From: a virus
Lineage: Duplodnaviria > Heunggongvirae > Uroviricota > Caudoviricetes
IMG/VR virus record: IMGVR_UViG_2698536454_000020
Location: 1-26,079 of that record
Strand: one strand, 5' to 3'
Length of the DNA: 26,079 nucleotides
Shown here in pieces: positions 1-13,177 of the stretch. Numbering within the stretch: position 1 is the first letter of the stretch; each line of letters starts with the position of its first letter. Both the position numbers and the translations under genes were made by a program. A model generated the notes under the pieces. It saw only the letters and a program-made list of their open reading frames with translations. It had not been told where the DNA came from and searched no databases.

Positions 1-981
1 TTATAACGTCACTCCGCCTTTTAGTGGATTCAGAGCGACGGCATTTTGCAGATAGTCAGGCGCAAGGTGCGCATAGGCCATCGTCTGCTGAATGCTCGCA
101 TGTCCCAGAATCTGTTGCAGTGCGATTATATTGCCCCCATTCATCATGAAATGGCTTGCGAATGTATGCCGCAGGATGTGGGTTGCCTGATTGGGTGGTA
201 TATCAGGTTTCACTCTGCGTAAAATCCCGCAAAATTTCTCATAATCAACTTTGAATAATTTGGCGCTGGCCTCCTCTTTAACTTTTTTCTCCAGTTCCTC
301 AGAAATCGGCACGGTTCGCTTTTTACCGTTTTTGGTTTTCAGGAAGGTAACCCTGCAATTTGTAATCTGTGCTGGTTTTAGCGTGGCAACTTCCGTCCAT
401 CTTCCTCCAGTGCTCAGACATAAAAGCGCGACAAGTAAGTCATCACCAGCCAAAACATTTAACAGTTTTTCGATTTCTGCTTTTTCCAGGAACGTCATTT
501 CAGGGTTGGCTTCCGCCAGTGGCGGCAGTCCGTGAATTGGGTGTTGCCCGGAAAATTCATCCAATTGAATTAATTTTGTGAACATGCCGGATAATCGGTA
601 CATGTCACGGTTTATCGTTGCGGCACTGATACCATCACGTAGTCGCATGGAACGATAATCCATCAAAGCCCTTTTGCTCATCCTGCTCACTGGTATATCA
701 CCTATGCCGCTGATGGTTTTGAGTAGATGATTAAACTCTTTTGTTCCATGCTCGTGGTTTTGCCCGTGATATTTCCACCAGATGTCCAGCAACTCACTCA
801 AAGTCCGGCGGTCTGCTCGCTGGCCTCCCCATTCTTTCTGACTGGCATTGGCGATTGTGTATCGCTCAAATGCTAGTGCTTCAGCTTTTCTTTCGAATTT
901 CCTGCGGATGCGTTTTCCGTCGCGGCCGCGAGGTCTAATGTCCACTTCATAGCGACCATCATCGAGCTTCTTAATTGCCAT
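1..981 (-). CDS. int: Phage integrase, tyrosine recombinase (P2 Int-like). ORF is open to 1011, but the ATG at 981 (MAIKKLDDG...) has a GGAGG Shine-Dalgarno 8 nt upstream and matches the remembered P2 Int N-terminus.
   Basis: ORF track 1..1011 (-); C-terminal region carries the tyrosine-recombinase signature (HxLRHTFAS ... AYAHL); position at the prophage edge, divergent from the repressor as in P2. Confidence 0.88.
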   Translation of the reverse strand: MAIKKLDDGRYEVDIRPRGRDGKRIRRKFERKAEALAFERYTIANASQKEWGGQRADRRTLSELLDIWWKYHGQNHEHGTKEFNHLLKTISGIGDIPVSRMSKRALMDYRSMRLRDGISAATINRDMYRLSGMFTKLIQLDEFSGQHPIHGLPPLAEANPEMTFLEKAEIEKLLNVLAGDDLLVALLCLSTGGRWTEVATLKPAQITNCRVTFLKTKNGKKRTVPISEELEKKVKEEASAKLFKVDYEKFCGILRRVKPDIPPNQATHILRHTFASHFMMNGGNIIALQQILGHASIQQTMAYAHLAPDYLQNAVALNPLKGGVTL

Positions 982-1050
982 AAGAAAGCCCTCCGGCGCT
1001 GTATTCACCATCTTGGTAGCAAATGGTGAAAATGTAATCTTTATATAGAG

Positions 1051-3237: not shown

Positions 3238-3509
3238 GTATTCGTATTGAAATTGGCGAACGTTATGTCGTTACCAGTGACAGCTTTCAGTTTATTCTCC
3301 ACGAGAAAAAGAGAGCGGAAAGCGGTAAAAACGCCGGTCAGGAATGGCTGGCGGTGGTTGGTTATTACCCGAAATTAAGCCAGCTCGTTTCCGGCCTGAT
3401 GCATCACGATATTCTGACCGGAAGCGCAAAGTCTTTTGCTGATTTAAACGGGCAGGTTGAGCAACTCAGCAAGCGTTGTTCAGAGGCTTTTGGCTCATAT
3501 GGCCGTTAA
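3234..3509 (+). CDS. Hypothetical early protein (P2 orf83 position), 91 aa
   Basis: ORF track; ATGA overlap with the upstream gene; overlaps the A start by 11 nt. Confidence 0.5.
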   Translation: MSIRIEIGERYVVTSDSFQFILHEKKRAESGKNAGQEWLAVVGYYPKLSQLVSGLMHHDILTGSAKSFADLNGQVEQLSKRCSEAFGSYGR

Positions 3510-5778
3510 AGCCTCCGGGCGTTTTGTCCCTCCGTCAGCATTTGCCGCAGGCACCGGTAAGACGTTTACCGGTGCTTATGCATGGAACGCGCCACGCGAG
3601 GCCGTCGGGCGCGAAAGACCCCTTACACGTGACGAGATGCGTCAGGTGCAAGGTGTTTTATCCACGATTAACCGCCTGCCTTACTTTTTGCGTTCGCTGT
3701 TTACTTCACGCTATGACTACATCCGGCGCAATAAAAGCCCGGTGCACGGGTTTTATTTCCTCACATCCACTTTTCAGCGTCGTTTATGGCCGCGCATTGA
3801 GCGCGTGAATCAGCGCCATGAAATGAACACCGACGCGTCGTTACTGTTTCTGGCAGAGCGTGACCACTATGCGCGCCTGCCGGGAATGAATGACAAGGAG
3901 CTGAAAAAATTTGCCGCCCGTATCTCATCGCAGCTTTTCATGATGTATGAGGAACTCTGCGATGCCTGGGTGGATGCCCATGGCGAAAAAGAATCGCTGT
4001 TTACGGATGAGGCGCAGGCTCACCTGTATGGTCATGTTGCTGGCGCTGCACGTGCTTTCAATATTTCCCCGCTCTACTGGAAAAAATACCGTAAAGGACA
4101 GATGACCACGAGGCAGGCATATTCTGCCATTGCCCGCCTGTTTAACGATGAGTGGTGGACTCATCAGCTTAAAGGCCAGCGTATGCGCTGGCATGAGGCG
4201 TTACTGATTGCTGTCGGGGAGGTCAATAAAGACCGTTCTCCTTATGCCAGTAAACATGCCATTCGTGATGTGCGTGCACGCCGCCAGGCAAATCTGGAAT
4301 TTCTTAAATCGTGTGACCTTGAAAACAGGGAAACCGGCGAGCGCATCGACCTTATCAGTAAGGTGATGGGCAGTATTTCTAATCCTGAAATTCGCCGGAT
4401 GGAGCTGATGAACACCATCGCCGGAATTGAGCGTTACGCCGCCGCAGAGGGTGATGTGGGGATGTTTATCACGCTGACCGCGCCGTCAAAGTATCACCCG
4501 ACACGTCAGGTCGGAAAAGGCGAAAGTAAAACCGTCCAGCTAAATCACGGCTGGAACGATGAGGCATTTAATCCAAAGGATGCGCAGCGTTATCTCTGCC
4601 ATATCTGGAGCCTGATGCGCACGGCATTCAAGGATAATGATTTACAGGTCTACGGTTTGCGTGTCGTCGAGCCACACCACGACGGAACGCCGCACTGGCA
4701 TATGATGCTTTTTTGTCATCCACGCCAGCGTAACCAGATTATTGAAATCATGCGTCGCTATGCGCTCAAAGAGGATGGCGACGAAAGAGGAGCCGCGCGA
4801 AACCGTTTTCAGGCAAAACACCTTAACCGGGGCGGTGCTGCGGGATATATCGCGAAATACATCTCAAAAAACATCGACGGCTATGCACTGGATGGTCAGC
4901 TCGATAATGATACCGGTAGGCCGCTGAAAGACACAGCTGCGGCTGTTACCGCATGGGCGTCAACGTGGCGCATTCCGCAATTTAAAACGGTTGGTCTGCC
5001 GACAATGGGGGCTTACCGTGAACTACGCAAATTGCCTCGCGGCGTCAGCATTGCTGATGAGTTTGACGAGCGCGTCGAGGCTGCACGCGCCGCTGCAGAC
5101 AGTGGTGATTTTGCGTTGTATATCAGCGCGCAGGGCGGGGCAAATGTCCCGCGCGATTGTCAGACTGTCAGGGTCGCCCGTAGCCCGTCGGATGACGTTA
5201 ACGAGTACGAGGAAGAAGTCGAGAGAGTGGTCGGCATTTACGCGCCGCATCTCGGCGCGCGTCATATTCATATCACCAGAACGACGGACTGGCGCATTGT
5301 TCCGAAAGTGCCGGTCGTTGAGCCTTTGACTTTAAAAAGCGGCATCGCCGCGCCTCGGAGTCCTGTCAATAACTGTGGAAAGCTCACCGGTGGTGATACT
5401 TCGTTACCGGCTCCCACACCTTCTGAGCACGCCGCAGCAGTGCTTAATCTGGTTGATGACGGTGTTATTGAATGGAATGACCAGGAGGTCGTGAGGGCGC
5501 TCAGGGGCGCATTAAAACAAGGTCTGAGAAGACCAAACCGTCAGCAAAGAAACGGAAGCCCGTTAAAACAGCATGAAATGGCACCATCGGCCAGACTGAC
5601 CCGGTCAGAACGAATGCAAATTACCCGTATCCGCGTTGACCTTGCTCAGAACGGTATCAGGCCGCAGCGATGGGAGCTTGAGGCGCTGGCGCGTGGAGCA
5701 ATTGTAAATTACGACGGGAAAAAATTCACGTATCCAGTCGCTGATGAGTGGCGGGGATTCTCAGCAGTAATGGAGTGA
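3499..5778 (+). CDS. A: Rolling-circle replication initiator endonuclease (P2 gpA-like), about 759 aa from the ATG at 3499
   Basis: ORF track 3457..5778; start moved to 3499 (MAVKASGRFVPP...) to match the remembered gpA N-terminus; HUH-type motif PHWHMMLF and tyrosine motif GYIAKYISKN present. Confidence 0.88.
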   Translation: MAVKASGRFVPPSAFAAGTGKTFTGAYAWNAPREAVGRERPLTRDEMRQVQGVLSTINRLPYFLRSLFTSRYDYIRRNKSPVHGFYFLTSTFQRRLWPRIERVNQRHEMNTDASLLFLAERDHYARLPGMNDKELKKFAARISSQLFMMYEELCDAWVDAHGEKESLFTDEAQAHLYGHVAGAARAFNISPLYWKKYRKGQMTTRQAYSAIARLFNDEWWTHQLKGQRMRWHEALLIAVGEVNKDRSPYASKHAIRDVRARRQANLEFLKSCDLENRETGERIDLISKVMGSISNPEIRRMELMNTIAGIERYAAAEGDVGMFITLTAPSKYHPTRQVGKGESKTVQLNHGWNDEAFNPKDAQRYLCHIWSLMRTAFKDNDLQVYGLRVVEPHHDGTPHWHMMLFCHPRQRNQIIEIMRRYALKEDGDERGAARNRFQAKHLNRGGAAGYIAKYISKNIDGYALDGQLDNDTGRPLKDTAAAVTAWASTWRIPQFKTVGLPTMGAYRELRKLPRGVSIADEFDERVEAARAAADSGDFALYISAQGGANVPRDCQTVRVARSPSDDVNEYEEEVERVVGIYAPHLGARHIHITRTTDWRIVPKVPVVEPLTLKSGIAAPRSPVNNCGKLTGGDTSLPAPTPSEHAAAVLNLVDDGVIEWNDQEVVRALRGALKQGLRRPNRQQRNGSPLKQHEMAPSARLTRSERMQITRIRVDLAQNGIRPQRWELEALARGAIVNYDGKKFTYPVADEWRGFSAVME

Positions 5779-6073: not shown

Positions 6074-6107
6074 TTGCGCCCTCAAAAGTAACCGGCGGCT
6101 GGGTAAA

Positions 6108-6482
6108 ATGGGGAAGCAAGGCAAAGGCAAAGGCAACAAAAATCAGGTTAAGGTTACGTGGGCTCAGGCGTGGCGGGATGTAATGATAAGAGCCATGTCT
6201 AATGGTCAGTTGATACCTATTACCATCAGTATTATTTTAATGATTGCTGCATGGAGGTTACCAAAAACTGACTTGTCCAATTTAGCCTTCTCTATTGTTG
6301 ATGGCTTTAAGGAGCATTCCTTGGTTGGTTGGGCTATCTCGGTAATAGTGGGTTTGGCTTGGTCTGCACATGCGCGAATCATGAGGCGCTGTTTTAGTTC
6401 CGAGGCACAGAGAATCGGTAACGAGAAAACAAAGTATCAACAAAGACAGACCACTCAAGCCTTGGGTACAAGTGATAAATAG
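6108..6482 (+). CDS. Small membrane protein, 124 aa, lysine-rich N-terminus and two predicted TM helices
   Basis: ORF track; hydrophobic stretches LIPITISIILMIAAW and LVGWAISVIVGLAWSA; low-GC island in the P2 tin/old hotspot slot. Confidence 0.55.
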   Translation: MGKQGKGKGNKNQVKVTWAQAWRDVMIRAMSNGQLIPITISIILMIAAWRLPKTDLSNLAFSIVDGFKEHSLVGWAISVIVGLAWSAHARIMRRCFSSEAQRIGNEKTKYQQRQTTQALGTSDK

Positions 6483-6502
6483 TTGTTTATTTAGGAGTTA
6501 TT

Positions 6503-7060
6503 ATGCTGACAGTGCTGTTTTATGTGCTGTTGGGTTTAGGCGCAGCACACTTCATTTACGAGCGAATCATTTTGCCGTCCATCCGACTTCATTATAGAAA
6601 CCAATTGTTTGCGCTTCGTGATGTCGCTAGGAGGAAAATCATTGATGGAGGTTCCGATACTTCCATGCAAGCGGCAACACTTGTGCATGACTCATTGAAT
6701 AACGCTATCAATAGATTGCATTTACTCACGTTGCCAAACAAATTTCGTGCTCAAAAGCGTATGGCAGAAAACCATGCAATAAGGCAGAAAATTCGGCGTG
6801 AGATAGATGTTTTCAAACGCTGTGATGATAGAGAAGTTGTTGATGTACTGTTTAAATCCGGTCGGATACTTGAAAATGTACTGTTATTCAATAGCTTAAT
6901 GTTATTGCTTTACATGTTTCCATTTGTCCTTGCTGTATGGTTCTGTGTTAGGGTCATAAAGACAGCAAGTAGTTTAGTACAGTGGGTCAAAGGAAGAGAT
7001 TTAGAGGAAGCTATAATGCTGCTTCCTGATACTCAGGTTGAAAAGGTTGTATACGCATAA
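6503..7060 (+). CDS. Membrane protein, 185 aa, N-terminal TM helix, central soluble region, C-terminal TM helix
   Basis: ORF track; AGGAG Shine-Dalgarno at 6493..6497; hydrophobic segments at residues about 2..18 and 128..150; 20 bp downstream of the preceding ORF. Confidence 0.6.
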   Translation: MLTVLFYVLLGLGAAHFIYERIILPSIRLHYRNQLFALRDVARRKIIDGGSDTSMQAATLVHDSLNNAINRLHLLTLPNKFRAQKRMAENHAIRQKIRREIDVFKRCDDREVVDVLFKSGRILENVLLFNSLMLLLYMFPFVLAVWFCVRVIKTASSLVQWVKGRDLEEAIMLLPDTQVEKVVYA

Positions 7061-7062
7061 AA

Positions 7063-7089
7063 ATCACCCCTTAGGGGGTGATTTTTTTA
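7063..7089 (+). terminator. Rho-independent terminator after the membrane-protein operon
   Basis: ATCACCCC-TTAG-GGGGTGAT perfect 8-bp stem followed by TTTTTTT, immediately after the stop at 7058..7060. Confidence 0.65.
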
Positions 7090-7255
7090 CATGACTTTTG
7101 ATTAGCTGACATTGTAAATCCGCATGTATCAGATGCATTGTTTTGCATGTGGAAATGGGTGTTTTCACTGCCAGCTATCGCTACATGTAGCAAAAACACG
7201 GGCTTAATAAGAAATCATTCTGCCATAAGGCATAACTTCCCCGCGTGCTCAGGTA

Positions 7256-7285
7256 TTGACGTCATAGATATGGATCTTTTTTAAT
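7256..7285 (+). promoter_or_regulatory. Candidate promoter for the TIR-like gene
   Basis: TTGACG (7256..7261), 17-18 bp spacer, TTTAAT-like -10; AAGG Shine-Dalgarno before the ATG at 7300. Confidence 0.3.
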
Positions 7286-7299
7286 CAAGGTATGGTATT

Positions 7300-8247
7300 A
7301 TGAAGATATTTATTAGTTGGTCAGGTCAGGACAGCCTGGAGATAGCAAAAGTATTACGGGATTGGATACCGAATGTTATTCAAGTAGCTGAGCCGTACGT
7401 ATCAGCGGAAGATATTGATAAAGGCACTCGCTGGGCGACTGATATATCAAAGGAACTTGATGACTCTTCTTATGGGATTATTTGCCTTACAAAAAATAAT
7501 ATTAATGCACCGTGGATAAATTTTGAGGCGGGTGCTTTAGGTAAAAAGGTTGATAAGAGCCGGGTTAGTCCTTTCTTGTTTAAAATTAAACCATCTGAGA
7601 TAACAGGCCCAATATTACAATTCCAGTATACTCGTTCGGATGATAAGAACGATATTTTGAAGTTGATGTTGTCAATAAATAATCAAGCAGGATTTTTGAC
7701 TGAAGAACGCTTAACTAAAGCTTTCGAGCAATGGTGGCCAAGTTTAGAGCGTGAGTTAGATAACATTCAAGATATTAACCCTGTAGATAAAGATTCCACT
7801 AAAAAAACAAAAGGTGATTCGACTTCTGAGATACAAAATCTTTCCAAAATTGTTGAAAGTTTGCTGGATATTAGCCGAACAAATCACCAATTATTGCGTG
7901 ATCCAGCATCATTATTGCCAGAAGAATATGTTAGCAAAATAATAAACAGGGAAGGGCGTAAAGAAACTGTTTTAAAAATTGTAGCTTCTGATTTATTATC
8001 CATGCATCATTCACTAATTCGTGTAAAAAGAAGATTTATTCGCCGTGGTATTGATGAAACATCTAGGAGCGAGTTAATTGAATCATTAAATAAAATGATA
8101 ATGGATTGTTCTAGAGTAATCGCTCACTTAGATAATTATTGTGGGGCTTCATCAAACAATATGTTCAATAGTGCGCTTAGATTGCGGACCAGAAATTTAA
8201 TTGACATGATGGATGAGGAGGATGCAGAACGGGATGAAATGGAATAA
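7300..8247 (+). CDS. TIR-like domain protein (N-terminal ~135 aa) fused to an unrecognised ~175-aa helical C-terminal domain; candidate anti-phage NADase or signal-generating protein
   Basis: N-terminus MKIFISWSGQDS and the block ICLTKNNINAPWINFEAG (W72, E76; GAG at 7525..7527) fit the bacterial TIR-like pattern (F-I-S-x-S/H start, [SA]-x-W-[CI]-x-x-E). Own promoter and terminator-bounded unit; low GC. Confidence 0.6.
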   Translation: MKIFISWSGQDSLEIAKVLRDWIPNVIQVAEPYVSAEDIDKGTRWATDISKELDDSSYGIICLTKNNINAPWINFEAGALGKKVDKSRVSPFLFKIKPSEITGPILQFQYTRSDDKNDILKLMLSINNQAGFLTEERLTKAFEQWWPSLERELDNIQDINPVDKDSTKKTKGDSTSEIQNLSKIVESLLDISRTNHQLLRDPASLLPEEYVSKIINREGRKETVLKIVASDLLSMHHSLIRVKRRFIRRGIDETSRSELIESLNKMIMDCSRVIAHLDNYCGASSNNMFNSALRLRTRNLIDMMDEEDAERDEME

Positions 8248-8297
8248 TCGATTTTGACTAATCATAAATAATTTTGCATATATAAACTTATAATGCC

Positions 8298-8320
8298 GCA
8301 GCCGCTATTTTTCAGCGGCT
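8298..8320. other. Hairpin (CAGCCGCT / AGCGGCTG stem) flanked by direct repeats CTTATAATG
   Basis: Read from sequence about 50 bp after the TIR-like gene stop; no clean T-run after the stem, so terminator function is uncertain. Confidence 0.3.
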
Positions 8321-8791
8321 GTATATCGCTTATAATGGGTATGTTATTTTTATTTTGATAAAATCATTAAAATTGTCGATGTTATATGAATGCACATGTA
8401 TTATTAATGTTAGAAGATTATGCCTGCTTACGGCTATTGTGCTGAATTCAACTATGAACGCATCAGTATTAAAATCGTTCCATGAAATGTTCTTCGTCTA
8501 CAGCAGATGATGGGCAACGAAAAAATGACGCTGAGTGAGTTGGTCGGGGAGAATTGTTAGAGGTATTTATGGAGTGGTTTAATAATATCGGTCAATCCTG
8601 AGTTGCAGCATCACATAGACGATAGGGAATCTCTCCAGTCGTTCTGGAATGGCAGCGTTGAACAACAAGCACAGCGAGGCGTTAGATGCCCATCAGATTG
8701 ACACAGAGGGTTTATGAATCGCTGGGATTTACTTAGTTTGAAAAATAATATATTTATATGTTTTTGTATTGTGTTTGTTAAGGAGTTTGGA

Positions 8792-8997
8792 TTGAAAAGA
8801 AAACTGATTTGTGTTATGGCTTTTTGGGGGCGTTGCTGGCTGGTTGTAATGAGAGTAATAAAAAAGAAGTTGAGGGTTGTATTGAAAGAGGTGTCCAATA
8901 TTTTATAGAGATTGGTTCTTACCCTAAATTAAGTGATGGGCGTGATGCTGTGAAAGTTGCTACTGAACGTTGTAATAGAACAATAACGGCTTTCTGA
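8792..8997 (+). pseudogene. Small lipoprotein gene (~70 aa) interrupted by a -1 frameshift in a T5G5 homopolymer run (8821..8830)
   Basis: AGGAG at 8781..8785 then TTG 8792; frame 2 gives MKRKLICVMAF..., frame 1 continues ...LGALLAGCNESNKK... to the stop at 8995..8997. One extra T would give a textbook lipoprotein signal peptide with LAGC lipobox. Confidence 0.4.
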
Positions 8998-8999
8998 TA

Positions 9000-9917
9000 A
9001 TGGATTATACGAGCTATATAATAGGGCAGCTTCAGGTTGAGGATATTATTGATGCAATTAAAGGCGTTAATAATACTAATGTCATAAAAGATTATGTGCT
9101 GCCTGTAGTATTACCAATTATATCTTCTGTGCTGAGTTACTTTATTGCAACTAGGTTGTTTTATCGGCAGGAGTACCTTAAAGCACAAAGAAGAAAGGTA
9201 AGCGTTGTAAATAAATGTATTTATGACTACTTTTCTGCAATGACAACGTTGTTGCAAATTAAAGGGAATTATTATGGTGGGGTAAGTATAAGTGAAAATC
9301 CTATCGAGAGGGCTTTAGCTTTTCCTGTTGTGGTTTTTTCTGGTGCTCCTCTATCATCAGATTTAAGTGAGTTGGCCTGTATATTGAGTCAAAAGGGAGT
9401 AGGGAATAATAGAGAGACAGCAAAGACTACTAACTGGGGGGATGCTTTTGCTGTTAGTGATATAGCAAGAAGGTTTAACAGCCTATTGGCTGCATTAAAT
9501 GTTAGGAATGATTTTGATGACACCTATAGAGGAATGATTATTGAATCAACAGGTTCACCTTTGCCTACGATGCGTTTTAAAAATGATGATATTGTTAATG
9601 CTATAGGTAGTAATAAGGCAGCTTATTACATTGATATTACTGAGCAAATAATGATTATGATAGATGTTTTGTTGCTTGATATTAATCTGTTGCTCAAAGA
9701 GTTGCCATTGTATGCTGAATCGCTGTTTGACAAAAGAGTAATGCAAGAAGATTCAGGGATTCTTAAATTCAATGATTTGCACGAACGTTTTCCTCTACTT
9801 ATGAAACCTGTAACGCCACCTTCGATTAAACTCATGTCTGATTATTTGGGGTACAGTGAAGATGAGATCTTACGACGCTATCCATACCCGTTCTTTAATA
9901 TGCATGATTGTGAATGA
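9000..9917 (+). CDS. Hypothetical membrane-anchored protein, 305 aa, one N-proximal TM helix, no recognisable domain
   Basis: ORF track; ATG overlaps the lipoprotein gene stop region (TGATAATG), implying co-transcription; hydrophobic segment VLPVVLPIISSVLSYFIAT; AT-rich codon usage. Confidence 0.6.
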   Translation: MDYTSYIIGQLQVEDIIDAIKGVNNTNVIKDYVLPVVLPIISSVLSYFIATRLFYRQEYLKAQRRKVSVVNKCIYDYFSAMTTLLQIKGNYYGGVSISENPIERALAFPVVVFSGAPLSSDLSELACILSQKGVGNNRETAKTTNWGDAFAVSDIARRFNSLLAALNVRNDFDDTYRGMIIESTGSPLPTMRFKNDDIVNAIGSNKAAYYIDITEQIMIMIDVLLLDINLLLKELPLYAESLFDKRVMQEDSGILKFNDLHERFPLLMKPVTPPSIKLMSDYLGYSEDEILRRYPYPFFNMHDCE

Positions 9918-10021
9918 ATGTGCATATGTCAGAAGCCGTTTTTATTGTCAGTTATCGTCAGTGCTGGCGCGCTCTTGGAGTGTTCATGCAACTGCATTAA
10001 AACCGCCCCACGAAGCGGGCG

Positions 10022-10040
10022 GGCGAGGCGGGGAAAGCAC
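10022..10040. other. Candidate cos site (P2-type 19-nt cohesive end GGCGAGGCGGGGAAAGCAC)
   Basis: Exact 19-mer present in a GC-rich gap between the island and portal gene Q, where cos lies in a P2 prophage; the cos sequence is recalled from memory, not searched. Confidence 0.5.
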
Positions 10041-10170
10041 TGCGCGCTGGCGGTGGTGATGATTGTCTGAGCGCGTCGTGATGGCGTTTAGATTGTGCGC
10101 CGGGGCGTTGGTGTGTCTGCGGGGTGTTTTGTACAGTGGCGAGCGTGTGAGGGCGTGATGACGGGGGTGT

Positions 10171-10192
10171 AAAAAAGCCGCCCGCAGGCGGC
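10171..10192 (-). terminator. Rho-independent terminator downstream of Q on the minus strand
   Basis: Plus strand shows AAAAAA then GCCGCC-CGCA-GGCGGC; on the minus strand this is a GC hairpin followed by TTTTTT, immediately after the Q stop at 10198..10200. Confidence 0.55.
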
Positions 10193-10197
10193 GATGT

Positions 10198-11232
10198 TCA
10201 GCCGTTGTCAGTGTCCAGTGAGTAGTTTTTAAAGCGGATGACCTCCTGACCGAGCCAGCCGTTTATTTCCCGAATCCTGTCCTGTAACGGGATAAGTTCA
10301 TTGCGGACAAAGACCTTTGCCACTTTCTCAATATCGCCCAGCGACCCGACGTTTTCCGGCTTGCCACCCATCAACTGAAAGGGGATGCGGTGCGCGTCCA
10401 GCAGGTCAGCGGCGCTGGCTTTTTTGATATTAAAAAAATCGTCCTTCGTGGCCACTTCACTGAGCGGGATAATTTTAATGCCGTCGGCTTTTCCCTGTGG
10501 GGCATAGAGAAACAGGTTTTTAAAGTTATTGCGGCCTTTCGACTTCACCATGTTTTCGCGGAGCATTTCGATATCGTTGCGATCCTGCACGGCATCAGTG
10601 ACGTACATGATGTATCCGGCATGTGCGCCGTTTTCGTAATACTTGCGGCGGAACAGCGTGGCCGACTCATTCAGCCAGGCCGAGTTAAGGGCGCTGAGAT
10701 ATTCCGGCAGGCCGTACAGCTCCTGATTAATATCCGGCTCCAGCAGGTGAAACACGGAGCCGGGCGTGAAAGGTGTCGGCTCGTTGAAGGACGGCACCCA
10801 CCAGTAAACATCCTCCTCCACCCCACGGCGGGTATATTTTGCCGGTGAGGTTTCCAGTCTGATGACCTTACCGGTGGTGCTGTATCGCTTTTCCAGAAAC
10901 GCATTACCGAACACCAGAAAATCCAGCACAAAGCGGCTGAAATCCTGTTGCGAAAGCCACGGGTGCGGGATAAACGTTGAGGCCAGAATATTACGTTTGA
11001 CGTAAATCGGGGAGCTGTGATGCACGGCAGCACGAAGGCTTTTTGCCAGCCCGGTAAAGCTGACTGGTGGCTCATACCATCTGCCGTTACTGATGCACTC
11101 GACGTAATCCAGAATGTCACGGCGGTCGAGTACCGGCACCGGCTCGCCAAAGGTGAATGCCTCCATTTTCGGGGCGCTGGCGGTCATTGTTTTTGCCGCT
11201 GGTCGCGGTGTTTTCCCTTTTTTCTTGCTCAT
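10198..11232 (-). CDS. Q: Portal protein (P2 gpQ-like), 344 aa
   Basis: 344-aa ORF, same length as P2 gpQ; adjacent to and co-oriented with the large terminase, divergent from O. Confidence 0.88.
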   Translation of the reverse strand: MSKKKGKTPRPAAKTMTASAPKMEAFTFGEPVPVLDRRDILDYVECISNGRWYEPPVSFTGLAKSLRAAVHHSSPIYVKRNILASTFIPHPWLSQQDFSRFVLDFLVFGNAFLEKRYSTTGKVIRLETSPAKYTRRGVEEDVYWWVPSFNEPTPFTPGSVFHLLEPDINQELYGLPEYLSALNSAWLNESATLFRRKYYENGAHAGYIMYVTDAVQDRNDIEMLRENMVKSKGRNNFKNLFLYAPQGKADGIKIIPLSEVATKDDFFNIKKASAADLLDAHRIPFQLMGGKPENVGSLGDIEKVAKVFVRNELIPLQDRIREINGWLGQEVIRFKNYSLDTDNG

Positions 11233-13004
11233 CAGTAAAACTCCAGAATGGTGGATGTCAGCGGAGTGCTGATACCGGCGGTGAGTGGCTCATTTAACAG
11301 GGCGTGCATGGTCGCCCAGGCGAGGTCGGCGTGGCTGGCTTCCTCGCTGCGGCTGGCCTCATAGGTGGCGCTGCGTCCGCTGCTGGTCATGGTCTTGCGG
11401 ATAGCCATAAACGAGCTGGTGATGTCGGTGGCGCTGACGTCATATTCCAGACAGCCACGACGGATAACGTCTTTTGCCTTGAGCACCATTGCGGTTTTCA
11501 TTTCCGGCGTGTAGCGGATATCGCGCGCGGCGGGATAGAACGAGCGCACGAGCTGGAACACACCGACACCGAGGCCGGTGGCATCAATCCCGATGTATTC
11601 AACGTTATATTTTTCGGTGAGTTTGCGGATGGATTCAGCCTGGGTGGCAAAGTCCATGCCTTTCCACTGGTGACGCTCAAGTATTCTGAATTTGCCACCG
11701 GCCACCACCGGCGGTGCCAGCACCACGCATCCGGCACTGTCGCCACGGTGTGACGGGTCGTAACCAATCCATACCGGGCGGGAGCCGAACGGATTCGCGG
11801 CAAACGGCGCATAGTCTTCCCATTCTTCCAGTGTGTCGACCATGCAGCGTTGCAGCTCCTCGAACGGGAACACCGACGCCTTGTCGTCAACAAATTCACA
11901 CATGAACAGGTTTTTAAAATCGTCGGCGCTGTTTTCGCGTTTGAGCTGCTCAATGTCGAACAGCGTGCAGCCGCCTTTCAGGGCGTCCTCAATGGTGACA
12001 ATCTGCCGCCACTGGCCGTCCGCACAGAGAAGACCTCCGGCAAGGGCGTTATGACTGACGTCGATTTCCACGCGTTCGGCGGCGCTGGCGCGTCCCCGGT
12101 TAAACAGTTCACCCGACCAGAACGGGTAGGCGTCGTGCGCCAGCGTGGACGGGGTGGAGAAATAGGTCGAACGCAGGTGACTCTGTGAGGCCATACCTGA
12201 TGCCACCTTACGCAGTACCTGAAAATTCGGGATCCAGAAAATCTCGTCGACGTACAGGTCGCCGTTATGGCTCTGTGCGGTGTTGGAGTTGGTGCCGAGA
12301 AAAATCAGTTTTGCGCCGTTATTGCCCAGGACAATCGGGTCACCGGTCAGGTCAACGTCAACCAGCCGGGCAAAGGCGATGATGTATTCGCGGAACACAT
12401 ACGCCTGCGTTTTACTGGCTGACAGAAAAATCTGGTTATGACCGGTTTTCAGGGCGCGCAGCAGCGCCTCGCGGGAAAAATAAAACGTTGCGCCAATCTG
12501 GCGGGATTTCAGGATATCGCGGATGCGGTGCTCAAGCCCGGCGCGATACCAGTGCAACTGATAGTCGAAAGACTGCTCAAAGAAAATCTGCTCCAGCTTT
12601 TCGATGGCCTCGTCACTGAAAAAATTCTTTTTCGGTTTGCGCCGCCCGCCTTTGTTGCGGTTAGCAACGTTCGGATTAAGGTCTGCCTCGTTGCCGGTCT
12701 GACTGTAACGGTTGACCCGTGCCAGTCGTTCAATCTGGCGTCCGAGCAGGTCAATTTCCTTGAAGTCACCGCCGGTTTTCTGCGGTTTGATGATGAGCTG
12801 GGTCAGTCGCGCTTCCAGACTCATTTCGACACGGCTGATGGGGGCAACGCTGTCCCAGCCGTCGCGCTGTTTCCAGCTCTGCACCGTCGGGCGTTTCATC
12901 TGCAACATGGCGGCAATCTGCGGCACGGAAAATCCCTGCCAGTACAGCAGCGCCGCCTGACGACGCGGGTCGTGTAAAAGAGTGGTGTCTGTGGTGATGG
13001 TCAT
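11232..13004 (-). CDS. P: Terminase large subunit (P2 gpP-like), about 590 aa from the ATG at 13004
   Basis: ORF track 11232..13034; internal Met (MTITTDTTLLHDPRR...) at 13004 matches the remembered gpP start and gives the P2 length. Confidence 0.88.
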   Translation of the reverse strand: MTITTDTTLLHDPRRQAALLYWQGFSVPQIAAMLQMKRPTVQSWKQRDGWDSVAPISRVEMSLEARLTQLIIKPQKTGGDFKEIDLLGRQIERLARVNRYSQTGNEADLNPNVANRNKGGRRKPKKNFFSDEAIEKLEQIFFEQSFDYQLHWYRAGLEHRIRDILKSRQIGATFYFSREALLRALKTGHNQIFLSASKTQAYVFREYIIAFARLVDVDLTGDPIVLGNNGAKLIFLGTNSNTAQSHNGDLYVDEIFWIPNFQVLRKVASGMASQSHLRSTYFSTPSTLAHDAYPFWSGELFNRGRASAAERVEIDVSHNALAGGLLCADGQWRQIVTIEDALKGGCTLFDIEQLKRENSADDFKNLFMCEFVDDKASVFPFEELQRCMVDTLEEWEDYAPFAANPFGSRPVWIGYDPSHRGDSAGCVVLAPPVVAGGKFRILERHQWKGMDFATQAESIRKLTEKYNVEYIGIDATGLGVGVFQLVRSFYPAARDIRYTPEMKTAMVLKAKDVIRRGCLEYDVSATDITSSFMAIRKTMTSSGRSATYEASRSEEASHADLAWATMHALLNEPLTAGISTPLTSTILEFY

Positions 13005-13177
13005 GAATACCTCGCCGTGATGAATACACGGCAAGGCTACTGAGTCGCGCCCCGCGATTCGCTAAGGTGCTGTTGTGTCAGTGATAAGCCATCCGGGACT
13101 GATGGCGGAGGATGCGTATCGTCGGGAAACTGATGCCGACATGTGACTCCTCTAATCACTATTCAGGACTCCTGACA
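13005..13177. promoter_or_regulatory. Divergent late-promoter region between P and O (expected activator-dependent late promoters)
   Basis: Position only: divergent P and O operons as in P2; no activator site was located with confidence. Confidence 0.3.

Follow-up and report, generated by a model that had tools for sequence, protein, structure and literature searches.

Positions 9000–9917 of a P2-like prophage (IMG/VR virus record IMGVR_UViG_2698536454_000020) encode a single-pass membrane protein of 305 amino acids (aa), the 305-aa protein, which lies directly downstream of a small lipoprotein gene. We analysed positions 1 to 26,079 of that record, and this whole stretch of 26,079 nucleotides (nt) is referred to below as the window. 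The 9000–9917 open reading frame (ORF) is real, conserved and under purifying selection, and the lipoprotein gene and the 305-aa gene together are a module of their own, which moves as a unit and is separate from the neighbouring 2TM-1TM-TIR system. We propose, with a probability of about 0.4, that the 305-aa protein is a membrane-acting anti-phage effector, with the lipoprotein serving as its modulator in the P2 lineage. The pair is best regarded as a plausible but unproven anti-phage module.

A conserved gene in a module separate from the TIR system

The features of the 305-aa gene and its product are as follows.
9000–9917, plus strand: gene of the 305-aa single-pass membrane protein; ATG start, stop TGA at 9915–9917
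About 31 aa: N-terminal tail of the protein
Residues ~32–55 (nt 9093–9164): transmembrane (TM) helix with an S42xxxS46(G)xxxA50 zipper
Residues 56–305: helical bundle and small C-terminal helices

At the local base composition, by our own arithmetic, about 7% of random codons would be stops, and 305 open codons would be expected by chance with a probability of ~5e-10 per start. The protein belongs to phrog_21267 (E=1.4e-149), an uncharacterised family of ~285-aa single-pass membrane proteins, with residues 9–300 aligned to profile positions 1–291 of 291. The ratio of nonsynonymous to synonymous substitution rates (dN/dS) was 0.09–0.25 for the gene, with comparisons between lineages saturated at synonymous sites. 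An earlier reading of the sequence alone (hereafter the sequence-only reading) had described a single hydrophobic helix near the N-terminus, a remainder with no motif that could be placed, and an AT-rich composition like that of the surrounding island. Each of these descriptions held. There is one strong hydrophobic segment, at residues ~32–55; scans of the protein against Pfam, NCBIfam and PADLOC returned no specific match; and G+C content is 0.34–0.38 across positions 7500–10000, compared with 0.55–0.61 in the phage structural genes.

In the window, the 305-aa gene is the last gene of a variable hotspot that extends from replication gene A to cos and the portal gene, with cos as its right-hand limit. 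In P2-like phages, the region between genes A and Q has been shown experimentally to be an anti-phage hotspot from which several systems were validated, and it also carries non-defence cargo such as partition systems and a cytolethal distending toxin (Rousset et al., PMC9122126). The landmarks of the window, downstream of which lie head, lysis and tail genes, are listed here.
1–1011, minus strand: integrase gene
3457–5778: replication gene A
~6100–9920: AT-rich block, G+C 0.34–0.42, within the variable region from A to Q
6108–6482, plus strand: 2TM gene (PADLOC 2TM-TIR, 2.2e-58)
6503–7060, plus strand: 1TM gene (PADLOC 1TM-TIR, 2.7e-75)
7300–8247, plus strand: TIR gene (PADLOC TIR-TM, 2.3e-118)
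8299–8321: perfect 8-base-pair hairpin after the TIR gene
10022–10040, plus strand: P2-type cos, a 19-mer identical to cosL of P2 (AF063097, positions 1–19)
10198–11232, minus strand: portal gene Q
11232–13034, minus strand: terminase gene P

Positions 8500–10000 are 99.9% identical to phage P2_AC1, and the 305-aa gene is identical to the copy on a further IMG/VR contig (locus L046). It is from phage AC1 that the 2TM-1TM-TIR system was validated (Rousset et al. 2022, PMC9122126). Table S5A of that study gives a five-gene arrangement, the last two genes of which are left undiscussed. The pair might therefore be read as the fourth and fifth components of the TIR system, given that all five genes together are the commonest arrangement in E. 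coli and that all of the products are membrane-associated. Several observations speak against this reading. The AC1 lysogen was protected only against lambda and LF82_P8 on a panel of eight phages, and the three TIR-system genes alone reproduced that protection (PMC9122126). A perfect hairpin follows the TIR gene, and a spacer of ~540 nt, which includes the module's own leader, separates that gene from the pair. PADLOC searches at E<=1 matched only the 2TM, 1TM and TIR ORFs and neither the lipoprotein nor the 305-aa protein.

Most directly, the pair was present without the TIR genes in four other arrangements (loci L003, L005–L007, L004, L028 and L029). In both E. coli MS16-3 and Salmonella P2-like prophages, a DUF3850/ASCH gene and a small hypothetical gene precede the pair; in MS16-3 a different gene, encoding 333 aa, comes next, while the Salmonella pair is otherwise alone. 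In ETEC1730 and GCA_014109045 nothing but the pair is annotated as cargo from gpA to gpQ, and its identity to the window lineage is 54% (membrane protein) and 68% (lipoprotein). Finally, on a metagenomic P2-like contig (L004), the pair occurs at 57% identity beside a MauJ/DzbB-like gene. The alignment to the MS16-3 and Salmonella loci begins at ~8650, right after the terminator hairpin of the upstream gene in those loci, and this start of similarity to TIR-less copies defines a leader belonging to the module itself. Membership in the TIR system is thus effectively refuted by separability, and we give it hardly any credence. The linkage of the lipoprotein gene to the membrane-protein gene, whose absence from other genomes would have told against the sequence-only reading, holds within P2-like phages; it was found in three lineages (99%, 57% and 54% protein identity to the window).

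We made several further observations around these loci. In MS16-3 (L003, 6216–7647), a cos-like sequence lies directly 3′ of the 305-aa gene, ahead of the 333-aa gene. The 333-aa product has hydrophobic C-terminal segments and no family match, and its gene, situated between the cos-like sequence and the portal gene, is either cargo on the "wrong" side of cos or an indication that the cos-like sequence is a second copy. The gene beside the divergent pair on the L004 contig (1808–3109) encodes a 433-aa protein with weak matches to MauJ (Pfam, E=3.6e-06) and DzbB (PADLOC, E=2e-4), and is possibly another defence candidate. In the window itself, ~300 nt of AT-rich DNA (8340–8650) between the TIR-gene hairpin and the lipoprotein module have no counterpart in TIR-less copies and hold only a weak 51-aa ORF (8355–8510); this stretch may be a remnant of earlier cargo. 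Terminator-like hairpins on the minus strand flank cos, at 10003–10022 and 10177–10192. The one just after gene Q sits where P2 annotates tQ, and the other directly adjoins the cos 19-mer. For the 305-aa gene, on the plus strand, we found no terminator-like site, and an Rfam scan of the window returned no RNA family.

The lipoprotein gene and its frameshift

The upstream half of the module comprises the following elements.
8650–8791, plus strand: 5′ leader of the two genes, presumed to hold their promoter; TIR-less copies become similar here
8792–8997, plus strand: small lipoprotein gene, frameshifted; native start TTG at 8792–8794; phrog_32041 at E=1.9e-30
8809–8997, plus strand: lipoprotein ORF of the sequence-only reading, from a TTG at 8809, sharing its frame with the lipobox and mature domain
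8821–8825: T5 run
8826–8830: G5 run (G6 in intact alleles)
8845–8847: lipid-Cys codon
8845–8994: mature domain
8906–8908: out-of-frame stop

The sequence-only reading had called this gene a lipoprotein gene, which is correct for intact alleles but not for the copy in the window. Intact alleles start at a TTG or ATG that matches window position 8792 and encode MKRKLICVMAF(W/F/L)GALL(A/V)GC..., followed by a 50-aa mature part; their signal peptides take forms such as MKRKLICVMAF.GALL.GC and MNKN...LLSGC, with a charged N-region, a hydrophobic core and a lipobox of the pattern L-[AV/S]-G-C. An AAGGAG at 8780–8785 lies 6 nt upstream of the native start, whereas the ORF from TTG 8809 lacks the charged N-region of a signal peptide and has no Shine-Dalgarno sequence visible by eye. 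No strong sigma-70 consensus was found in the 8650–8791 leader. DNA alignment of the homopolymer tract gave T5G5 in the window and in P2_AC1, T5G6 in E. coli D7 and T7G4 in E. coli MS16-3, the last of which preserves the total tract length of D7. With one G fewer, the window reads out of frame from the native start to the stop at 8906–8908, so that a 1-nt deletion separates the N-region and native start from the lipobox, all of which are in frame in intact alleles.

The same 1-nt deletion was observed in P2_AC1 by DNA alignment, and match length, annotation and ORF calls suggest that E. coli M21816 and the L046 contig share it. The frameshifted allele therefore comes from at least two, and probably four, sources, in which the downstream 305-aa ORF is kept. 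It is nevertheless the rarer form. Of the 15 complete E. coli genomes matched over the full length, 14 have an intact lipoprotein gene, and its intact product was found in 675 blocks of the assembly collection as against one contig for an apparent truncated call of the broken allele. The dN/dS of the lipoprotein gene was 0.08–0.25. The T5G5 tract, which differs between copies, may be a slippage-prone site within the signal peptide; that low-level −1 slippage on the G run occurs in the window is pure speculation.

These alleles bear on the coupling of the two genes. The start of the 305-aa gene does abut the upstream stop in the window, as had been noted (TGA at 8995–8997, then 2 nt, then ATG at 9000, giving TGA-TA-ATG). 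However, the start-stop coupling drawn from this arrangement is broken in the window by the frameshift: ribosomes from the native start would stop ~90 nt short of the 305-aa start, and inspection by eye showed no evident Shine-Dalgarno sequence ahead of ATG 9000, with the result that the two genes are no longer translationally coupled. Nor is the abutting arrangement conserved. Divergent lineages have a gap of 33–34 nt, which in ETEC1730 contains an AG-rich, ribosome-binding-like stretch, again read by eye. The module in the window is probably defective or crippled, or else expresses only the membrane protein, and that weakly.

The model of the mature lipoprotein is a helix-loop-helix hairpin (pLDDT, the predicted local distance difference test, 83), with the invariant residues Cys12 and Cys43 on separate helices, which makes a stapling disulfide plausible. 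In E. coli, an Asp at position +2 is the classic signal for inner-membrane retention of a lipoprotein (the "+2 rule"). The residues that begin at the lipid Cys are CNES in the window lineage, CDDS and CDNG in the two divergent phage lineages, and CDSS in a stand-alone homologue. Asp +2 in two of the three phage lineages predicts an inner-membrane lipoprotein, while the Asn of the window lineage is ambiguous.

The wider family, its predicted structure and its neighbourhoods

An exhaustive phmmer search of 1.8 billion representatives, at E<=1e-3, identified 171 representatives of the 305-aa family; a word-index search gave only 2–5 clusters per query. Nearly all are 275–320 aa long and align end to end at 22–29% identity. 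Those members that we sampled are either named "hypothetical protein" in their sources or, in many cases, nameless. Our family alignment comprised 46 sequences, of which a 10-sequence sub-alignment was used for the locus scan. The 46 members share no common Pfam, NCBIfam or PADLOC (PADLOC-DB v2) family, known defence and abortive-infection families such as Abi, HEPN and SLATT included, yielding only isolated single-member matches near E=0.01, and the family profile matched nothing in the PDB sequences below E=0.2.

The alignment defines a pattern in the N-terminal tail, IVxAIxxLK...KDYxxP, ahead of the TM helix. The zipper residues lie on one face of that helix: S42 is found in 39, G46 in 40 (Ser in the window) and A50 in 38 of the 46 sequences. 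L84, K88, Y91, P101, R104 and D222 are invariant in the family, and Q57, N71, R169 and E215 nearly so. The window protein shows KDYxxP, the SxxxGxxxA zipper with Ser at 46, and all six of the invariant residues. Close to the C-terminus, residues ~276–297 (nt 9825–9890) carry a conserved motif, (D/N)YxxLxxLxG(Y/E)SxE(E)IxxRY, with a spacing like that of a helix-turn-helix. We do not claim DNA binding for this segment ("LxxYLGYSEDEILRRY"), which had no Pfam helix-turn-helix match and has an acidic helix in the recognition position; it might serve in protein binding. HEPN identity was likewise rejected, there being no conserved Rx4-6H and the His of NYH not being conserved in the phage clade.

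Across the wider family the membrane protein stands by itself. It is found mostly on chromosomes, as a lone gene of free-living Proteobacteria such as Nitrosomonas, Pseudoalteromonas and Desulfobulbaceae. Relatives at 22–32% identity are stand-alone genes without a lipoprotein, and none of the 22 distant-homologue loci had a lipoprotein gene upstream, several of them having no room for one. The core unit therefore appears to be the membrane protein, with the lipoprotein a lineage-specific addition. Conversely, one GC-rich bacterium (L031, 232–666) encodes a lone lipoprotein that shares the CIERGxxYFKEIGSYP...ATERCNRTxTAF domain but is not partnered by a membrane protein, from which it follows that the small lipoprotein domain has a life of its own. 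Taken together, the distant loci and this lone homologue point to the lipoprotein as an accessory acquired in the enterobacterial P2 lineage. In two Nitrosomonas metagenome-assembled genomes (L014, 6001–6888, and L019, 5968–6907) the homologue is split into two ORFs, by either pseudogenisation or assembly error.

The stand-alone relatives and the natural frameshifts also bear on whether the pair could be a toxin and its antidote, in which a membrane toxin restrained by the lipoprotein would stabilise the prophage or its hotspot cargo. Two small adjacent genes whose stop and start abut in the window lineage would fit this arrangement, as would a TM zipper suggestive of pore formation. However, the window and P2_AC1, and apparently M21816 and L046, combine a frameshifted lipoprotein gene with an undamaged 305-aa ORF; lysogens of AC1 are stable; and most family members lack the lipoprotein or any other conserved partner. 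An antidote is therefore not needed, and we consider an addiction pair very unlikely. The natural frameshift alleles suggest instead that the 305-aa gene alone is non-toxic at its native level.

We modelled the 305-aa protein with AlphaFold2 and the 46-sequence alignment (pLDDT 88; predicted template modelling score, pTM, 0.80). The model has these elements.
Residues 4–21: helix, of lower confidence
Residues 28–95: very long helix that includes the TM segment
Residues ~130–148: variable loop of low confidence
Residues 149–184: helix
Residues 204–242: helix
C-terminal region: short helices, clustered

The long helices 149–184 and 204–242 pack into a bundle for which only generic structural matches were obtained. 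Compared with four-helix-bundle sensors, it scored as any long helical bundle would, and de novo designed bundles scored higher. Lys and Arg residues were more numerous in the 20 residues after the TM helix than in the whole N-terminal tail in 85 of 108 family members (means 4.2 versus 2.4), and the tail is acidic. Cysteines in the large domain are not conserved, and 47% of members have an odd number of them. By the positive-inside rule, we predict with reasonable confidence that the N-terminal tail is periplasmic and the 250-aa bundle cytoplasmic, an orientation with which the cysteines are consistent.

This orientation matters for a second alternative, superinfection exclusion at the envelope, in which the lipoprotein and the membrane protein would block the DNA-delivery conduit of an incoming phage, so that no DNA enters and no cell is killed. 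HK97 gp15 is an inner-membrane superinfection-exclusion protein, and small, disulfide-containing phage lipoproteins are established exclusion factors, namely Llp of T5, Cor of phi80, N15 and HK022, and Ltp of TP-J34. The lipoprotein described here resembles the latter in being small (~50 aa when mature), in its conserved Cys pair and in its origin from a temperate phage. Both of our products are envelope proteins, the lipoprotein is predicted to reside in the inner membrane, where DNA enters, and the N-terminal tail of the membrane protein is conserved. P22 SieA is an established inner-membrane exclusion factor (PMC10883804), and the 305-aa protein resembles it and gp15 in being a prophage-encoded inner-membrane protein of benefit to the lysogen. 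On the other hand, there is no sequence or fold similarity to these or to any known exclusion protein, and the bulk of the 305-aa protein, ~250 aa, is predicted to be cytoplasmic, where a periplasmic block would not need it. The family is widespread outside phages, being mostly chromosomal and stand-alone, whereas exclusion proteins are usually narrow and phage-specific. The lipoprotein likewise shows no homology to Llp, Cor or Ltp (no Pfam match above noise, and PHROG matches only to families of unknown function), and it differs from them in the Asp +2 of two lineages, which predicts the inner membrane, in always having a membrane-protein partner in phages, and in being frameshifted here. We consider exclusion rather unlikely.

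Homologues recurred, in each case without a lipoprotein, at variable sites of other phages. One (L043) lies in the gpA-adjacent region of a different P2-like phage, ~2.3 kilobases upstream of a type I CBASS (cyclic-oligonucleotide-based anti-phage signalling system; cyclase and 4TM effector, 9120–11056). Another (L044) lies between gpA and the portal gene of yet another P2-like phage; a third (L045) between the tail genes gpS and gpV, an interval that we take to be the site of P2 orf30; and a fourth (L042) between the endonuclease VII and large terminase genes of a phage with a lambda-type (GpA) terminase. Elsewhere, homologues neighbour a type I restriction-modification specificity (Methylase_S) gene, a PDC-S59-like ATPase with a Tdi1-like immunity protein, a RES toxin with PDC-S67, a NucC-like DUF6602 nuclease, a DUF2806/Abi_alpha-like gene, and integrase and IS21 genes, and one sits between resolvase genes on a conjugative Erwinia plasmid. 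In two Nitrosomonas loci (L015 and L016), as read by eye from N-termini, the homologue is directly downstream of ribF-ileS-lspA. Given that lspA encodes the lipoprotein signal peptidase and that the phage homologues have a lipoprotein partner, this proximity invites comment, but it is probably a coincidence.

A possible anti-phage role and comparison with known systems

The pair is best explained as an accessory (moron) module, complete in itself, that a P2-like prophage carries in its cos-proximal hotspot. If the 305-aa protein is a membrane-acting effector, its cytoplasmic bundle would detect some cue of infection, whereupon the protein would self-assemble through its zipper TM helix and undermine the inner membrane, in the manner of abortive infection. 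A family member would be able to act as a single gene. In the P2 lineage, the lipoprotein, predicted to be retained at the inner membrane and stapled by a disulfide, would attach to the periplasmic tail and thereby modulate or gate its partner. Hotspot location, modularity, selection, family breadth, recurrence at variable sites and the defence or toxin genes nearby make a defence role a reasonable hypothesis. The sequence-only reading had proposed a two-component exclusion or abortive-infection module. A conserved pair in a defence hotspot agrees with that proposal, but two obligatory components do not agree with a wider family of single genes and a lipoprotein that is optional and, in the window, broken.

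A separate published study has flagged a nearly identical protein. In Table S10 of DefensePredictor (Science 2026, PMC13092281), WP_023140581.1, which differs from the window protein at one residue, is one of 1,041 clusters classed as "uncharacterized" and bears the label "Putative novel defense gene"; its only HHblits match there had 9% coverage and a probability of 55. The same study validated 42 systems, with a precision of 45% over 118 units tested, 94 of which were picked for high scores. We did not find WP_023140581.1 in the other DefensePredictor supplementary tables available as text, and these gave no sign of its having been tested. The prediction is supportive, but neither independent nor decisive.

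A number of points weigh against the effector reading. The mean log-odds of WP_023140581.1, 4.84, is only just above the stringent cut-off of 4 (PMC13092281), and the score is not independent of the adjacent TIR gene because the model uses two neighbours on each side together with G+C content. About half of the bacterial loci, as judged by eye from N-termini, are lone insertions amid housekeeping genes with no defence-island signature, for example downstream of ribF-ileS-lspA, suf genes, metH or trxB. The pair added nothing detectable in the AC1 lysogen on the eight-phage panel (PMC9122126), although AC1 carries the broken allele and this negative result therefore says little. A full-text literature search, by accession and for P2-hotspot lipoprotein or exclusion systems, found neither a characterisation nor a direct experimental test of the pair. 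Topology, oligomerisation and membrane damage are predictions only, and the location of the lipoprotein and the anti-phage function and mechanism are things that we infer.

Several of these same points favour a role unrelated to phage defence, in which the pair would be a lysogenic-conversion or housekeeping-type envelope factor, or would serve the phage cycle while riding in the hotspot. The non-defence cargo of the P2 hotspot, the many distant homologues that are single genes among housekeeping genes, the lack of an extra phenotype in the AC1 lysogen (PMC9122126), and the persistence of a frameshifted allele with its downstream ORF retained would all fit such a role. Set against it are the recurrence at several variable sites of phages and next to genes for CBASS, RES toxin, nuclease and restriction-modification proteins, the patchy, AT-rich and mobile character of the family, and the machine-learning prediction of defence (PMC13092281). 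Clear homology to a known non-defence family, which would also have told against the sequence-only reading, did not turn up in the library scans. We judge a role outside defence to be unlikely, a little more so than exclusion.

Returning to the effector reading, a more far-reaching version of it would see in these proteins a new class of immune effector, encoded by a single gene, crossing the inner membrane once and having a fold with no characterised relative. In the P2 lineage they would have become an outside-in device, with the lipoprotein sensing a periplasmic sign of infection, such as conduit insertion or a breach of the cell wall, and passing the signal through the tail to zipper oligomerisation, and with the G run as a possible on/off switch. 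We regard this version as doubtful, and less probable than either exclusion or a role outside defence. Should the family prove defensive, a widespread fold without an annotated relative would join the membrane-acting immune effectors. It would also be a rare case in which an effector alone in many bacteria has recruited a periplasmic lipoprotein in one phage lineage, and thus a natural experiment on bolting sensing modules onto effectors. The AC1 hotspot, described as three genes, holds a second module; an example of its intact allele is that of E. coli D7 (WP_023140580 and WP_023140581), the allele of AC1 and the window being broken.

Among known systems, the neighbouring Rst_2TM_1TM_TIR shares with the pair its hotspot, its AT-rich island, membrane-associated products and, usually, residence in the same E. 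coli genome. Unlike a part of that system, the pair has no homology to its three proteins, is separable from them and is not needed for the published phenotype. The spanins Rz/Rz1 (LysB/LysC of P2) also combine a phage lipoprotein with a single-pass inner-membrane protein, but here the gene order is reversed, with the lipoprotein first, and the pair lies in the gpA-cos hotspot, outside the lysis cassette. Such phages already have LysA and LysC in their lysis region (L038, L040). In addition, the predicted topology is opposite (C-terminus in), and the lipoprotein lacks a proline-rich composition. We rejected spanin identity on the order of the genes, their location and the predicted topology.

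The 4TM and 2TM effectors of CBASS, the TM effectors of Pycsar and similar transmembrane effectors of abortive-infection systems resemble the 305-aa protein in joining a membrane anchor to a cytoplasmic domain; the self-association motif in the TM helix likewise suggests membrane disruption, and one homologue is co-resident with CBASS. They differ in that the 305-aa protein has no homology to them, no partner signalling enzyme, a single TM helix and no recognisable nucleotide-binding domain. The four-helix-bundle sensor domains and lipoprotein-sensor pairs (TorS, Tar, PilJ, QseE-QseG) have their domains in the periplasm, whereas the bundle here is predicted to be cytoplasmic, and the 305-aa protein has no kinase or signalling output domain. 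Direct membership was found only in phrog_21267, and in phrog_32041 for the lipoprotein, families to which no function, structure or phenotype is attached. Viewed against these systems, the pair adds another unvalidated candidate to a hotspot that is well known, and a published predictor has already picked it out; what sets it apart is a fold without relatives and an unusual periplasmic add-on.

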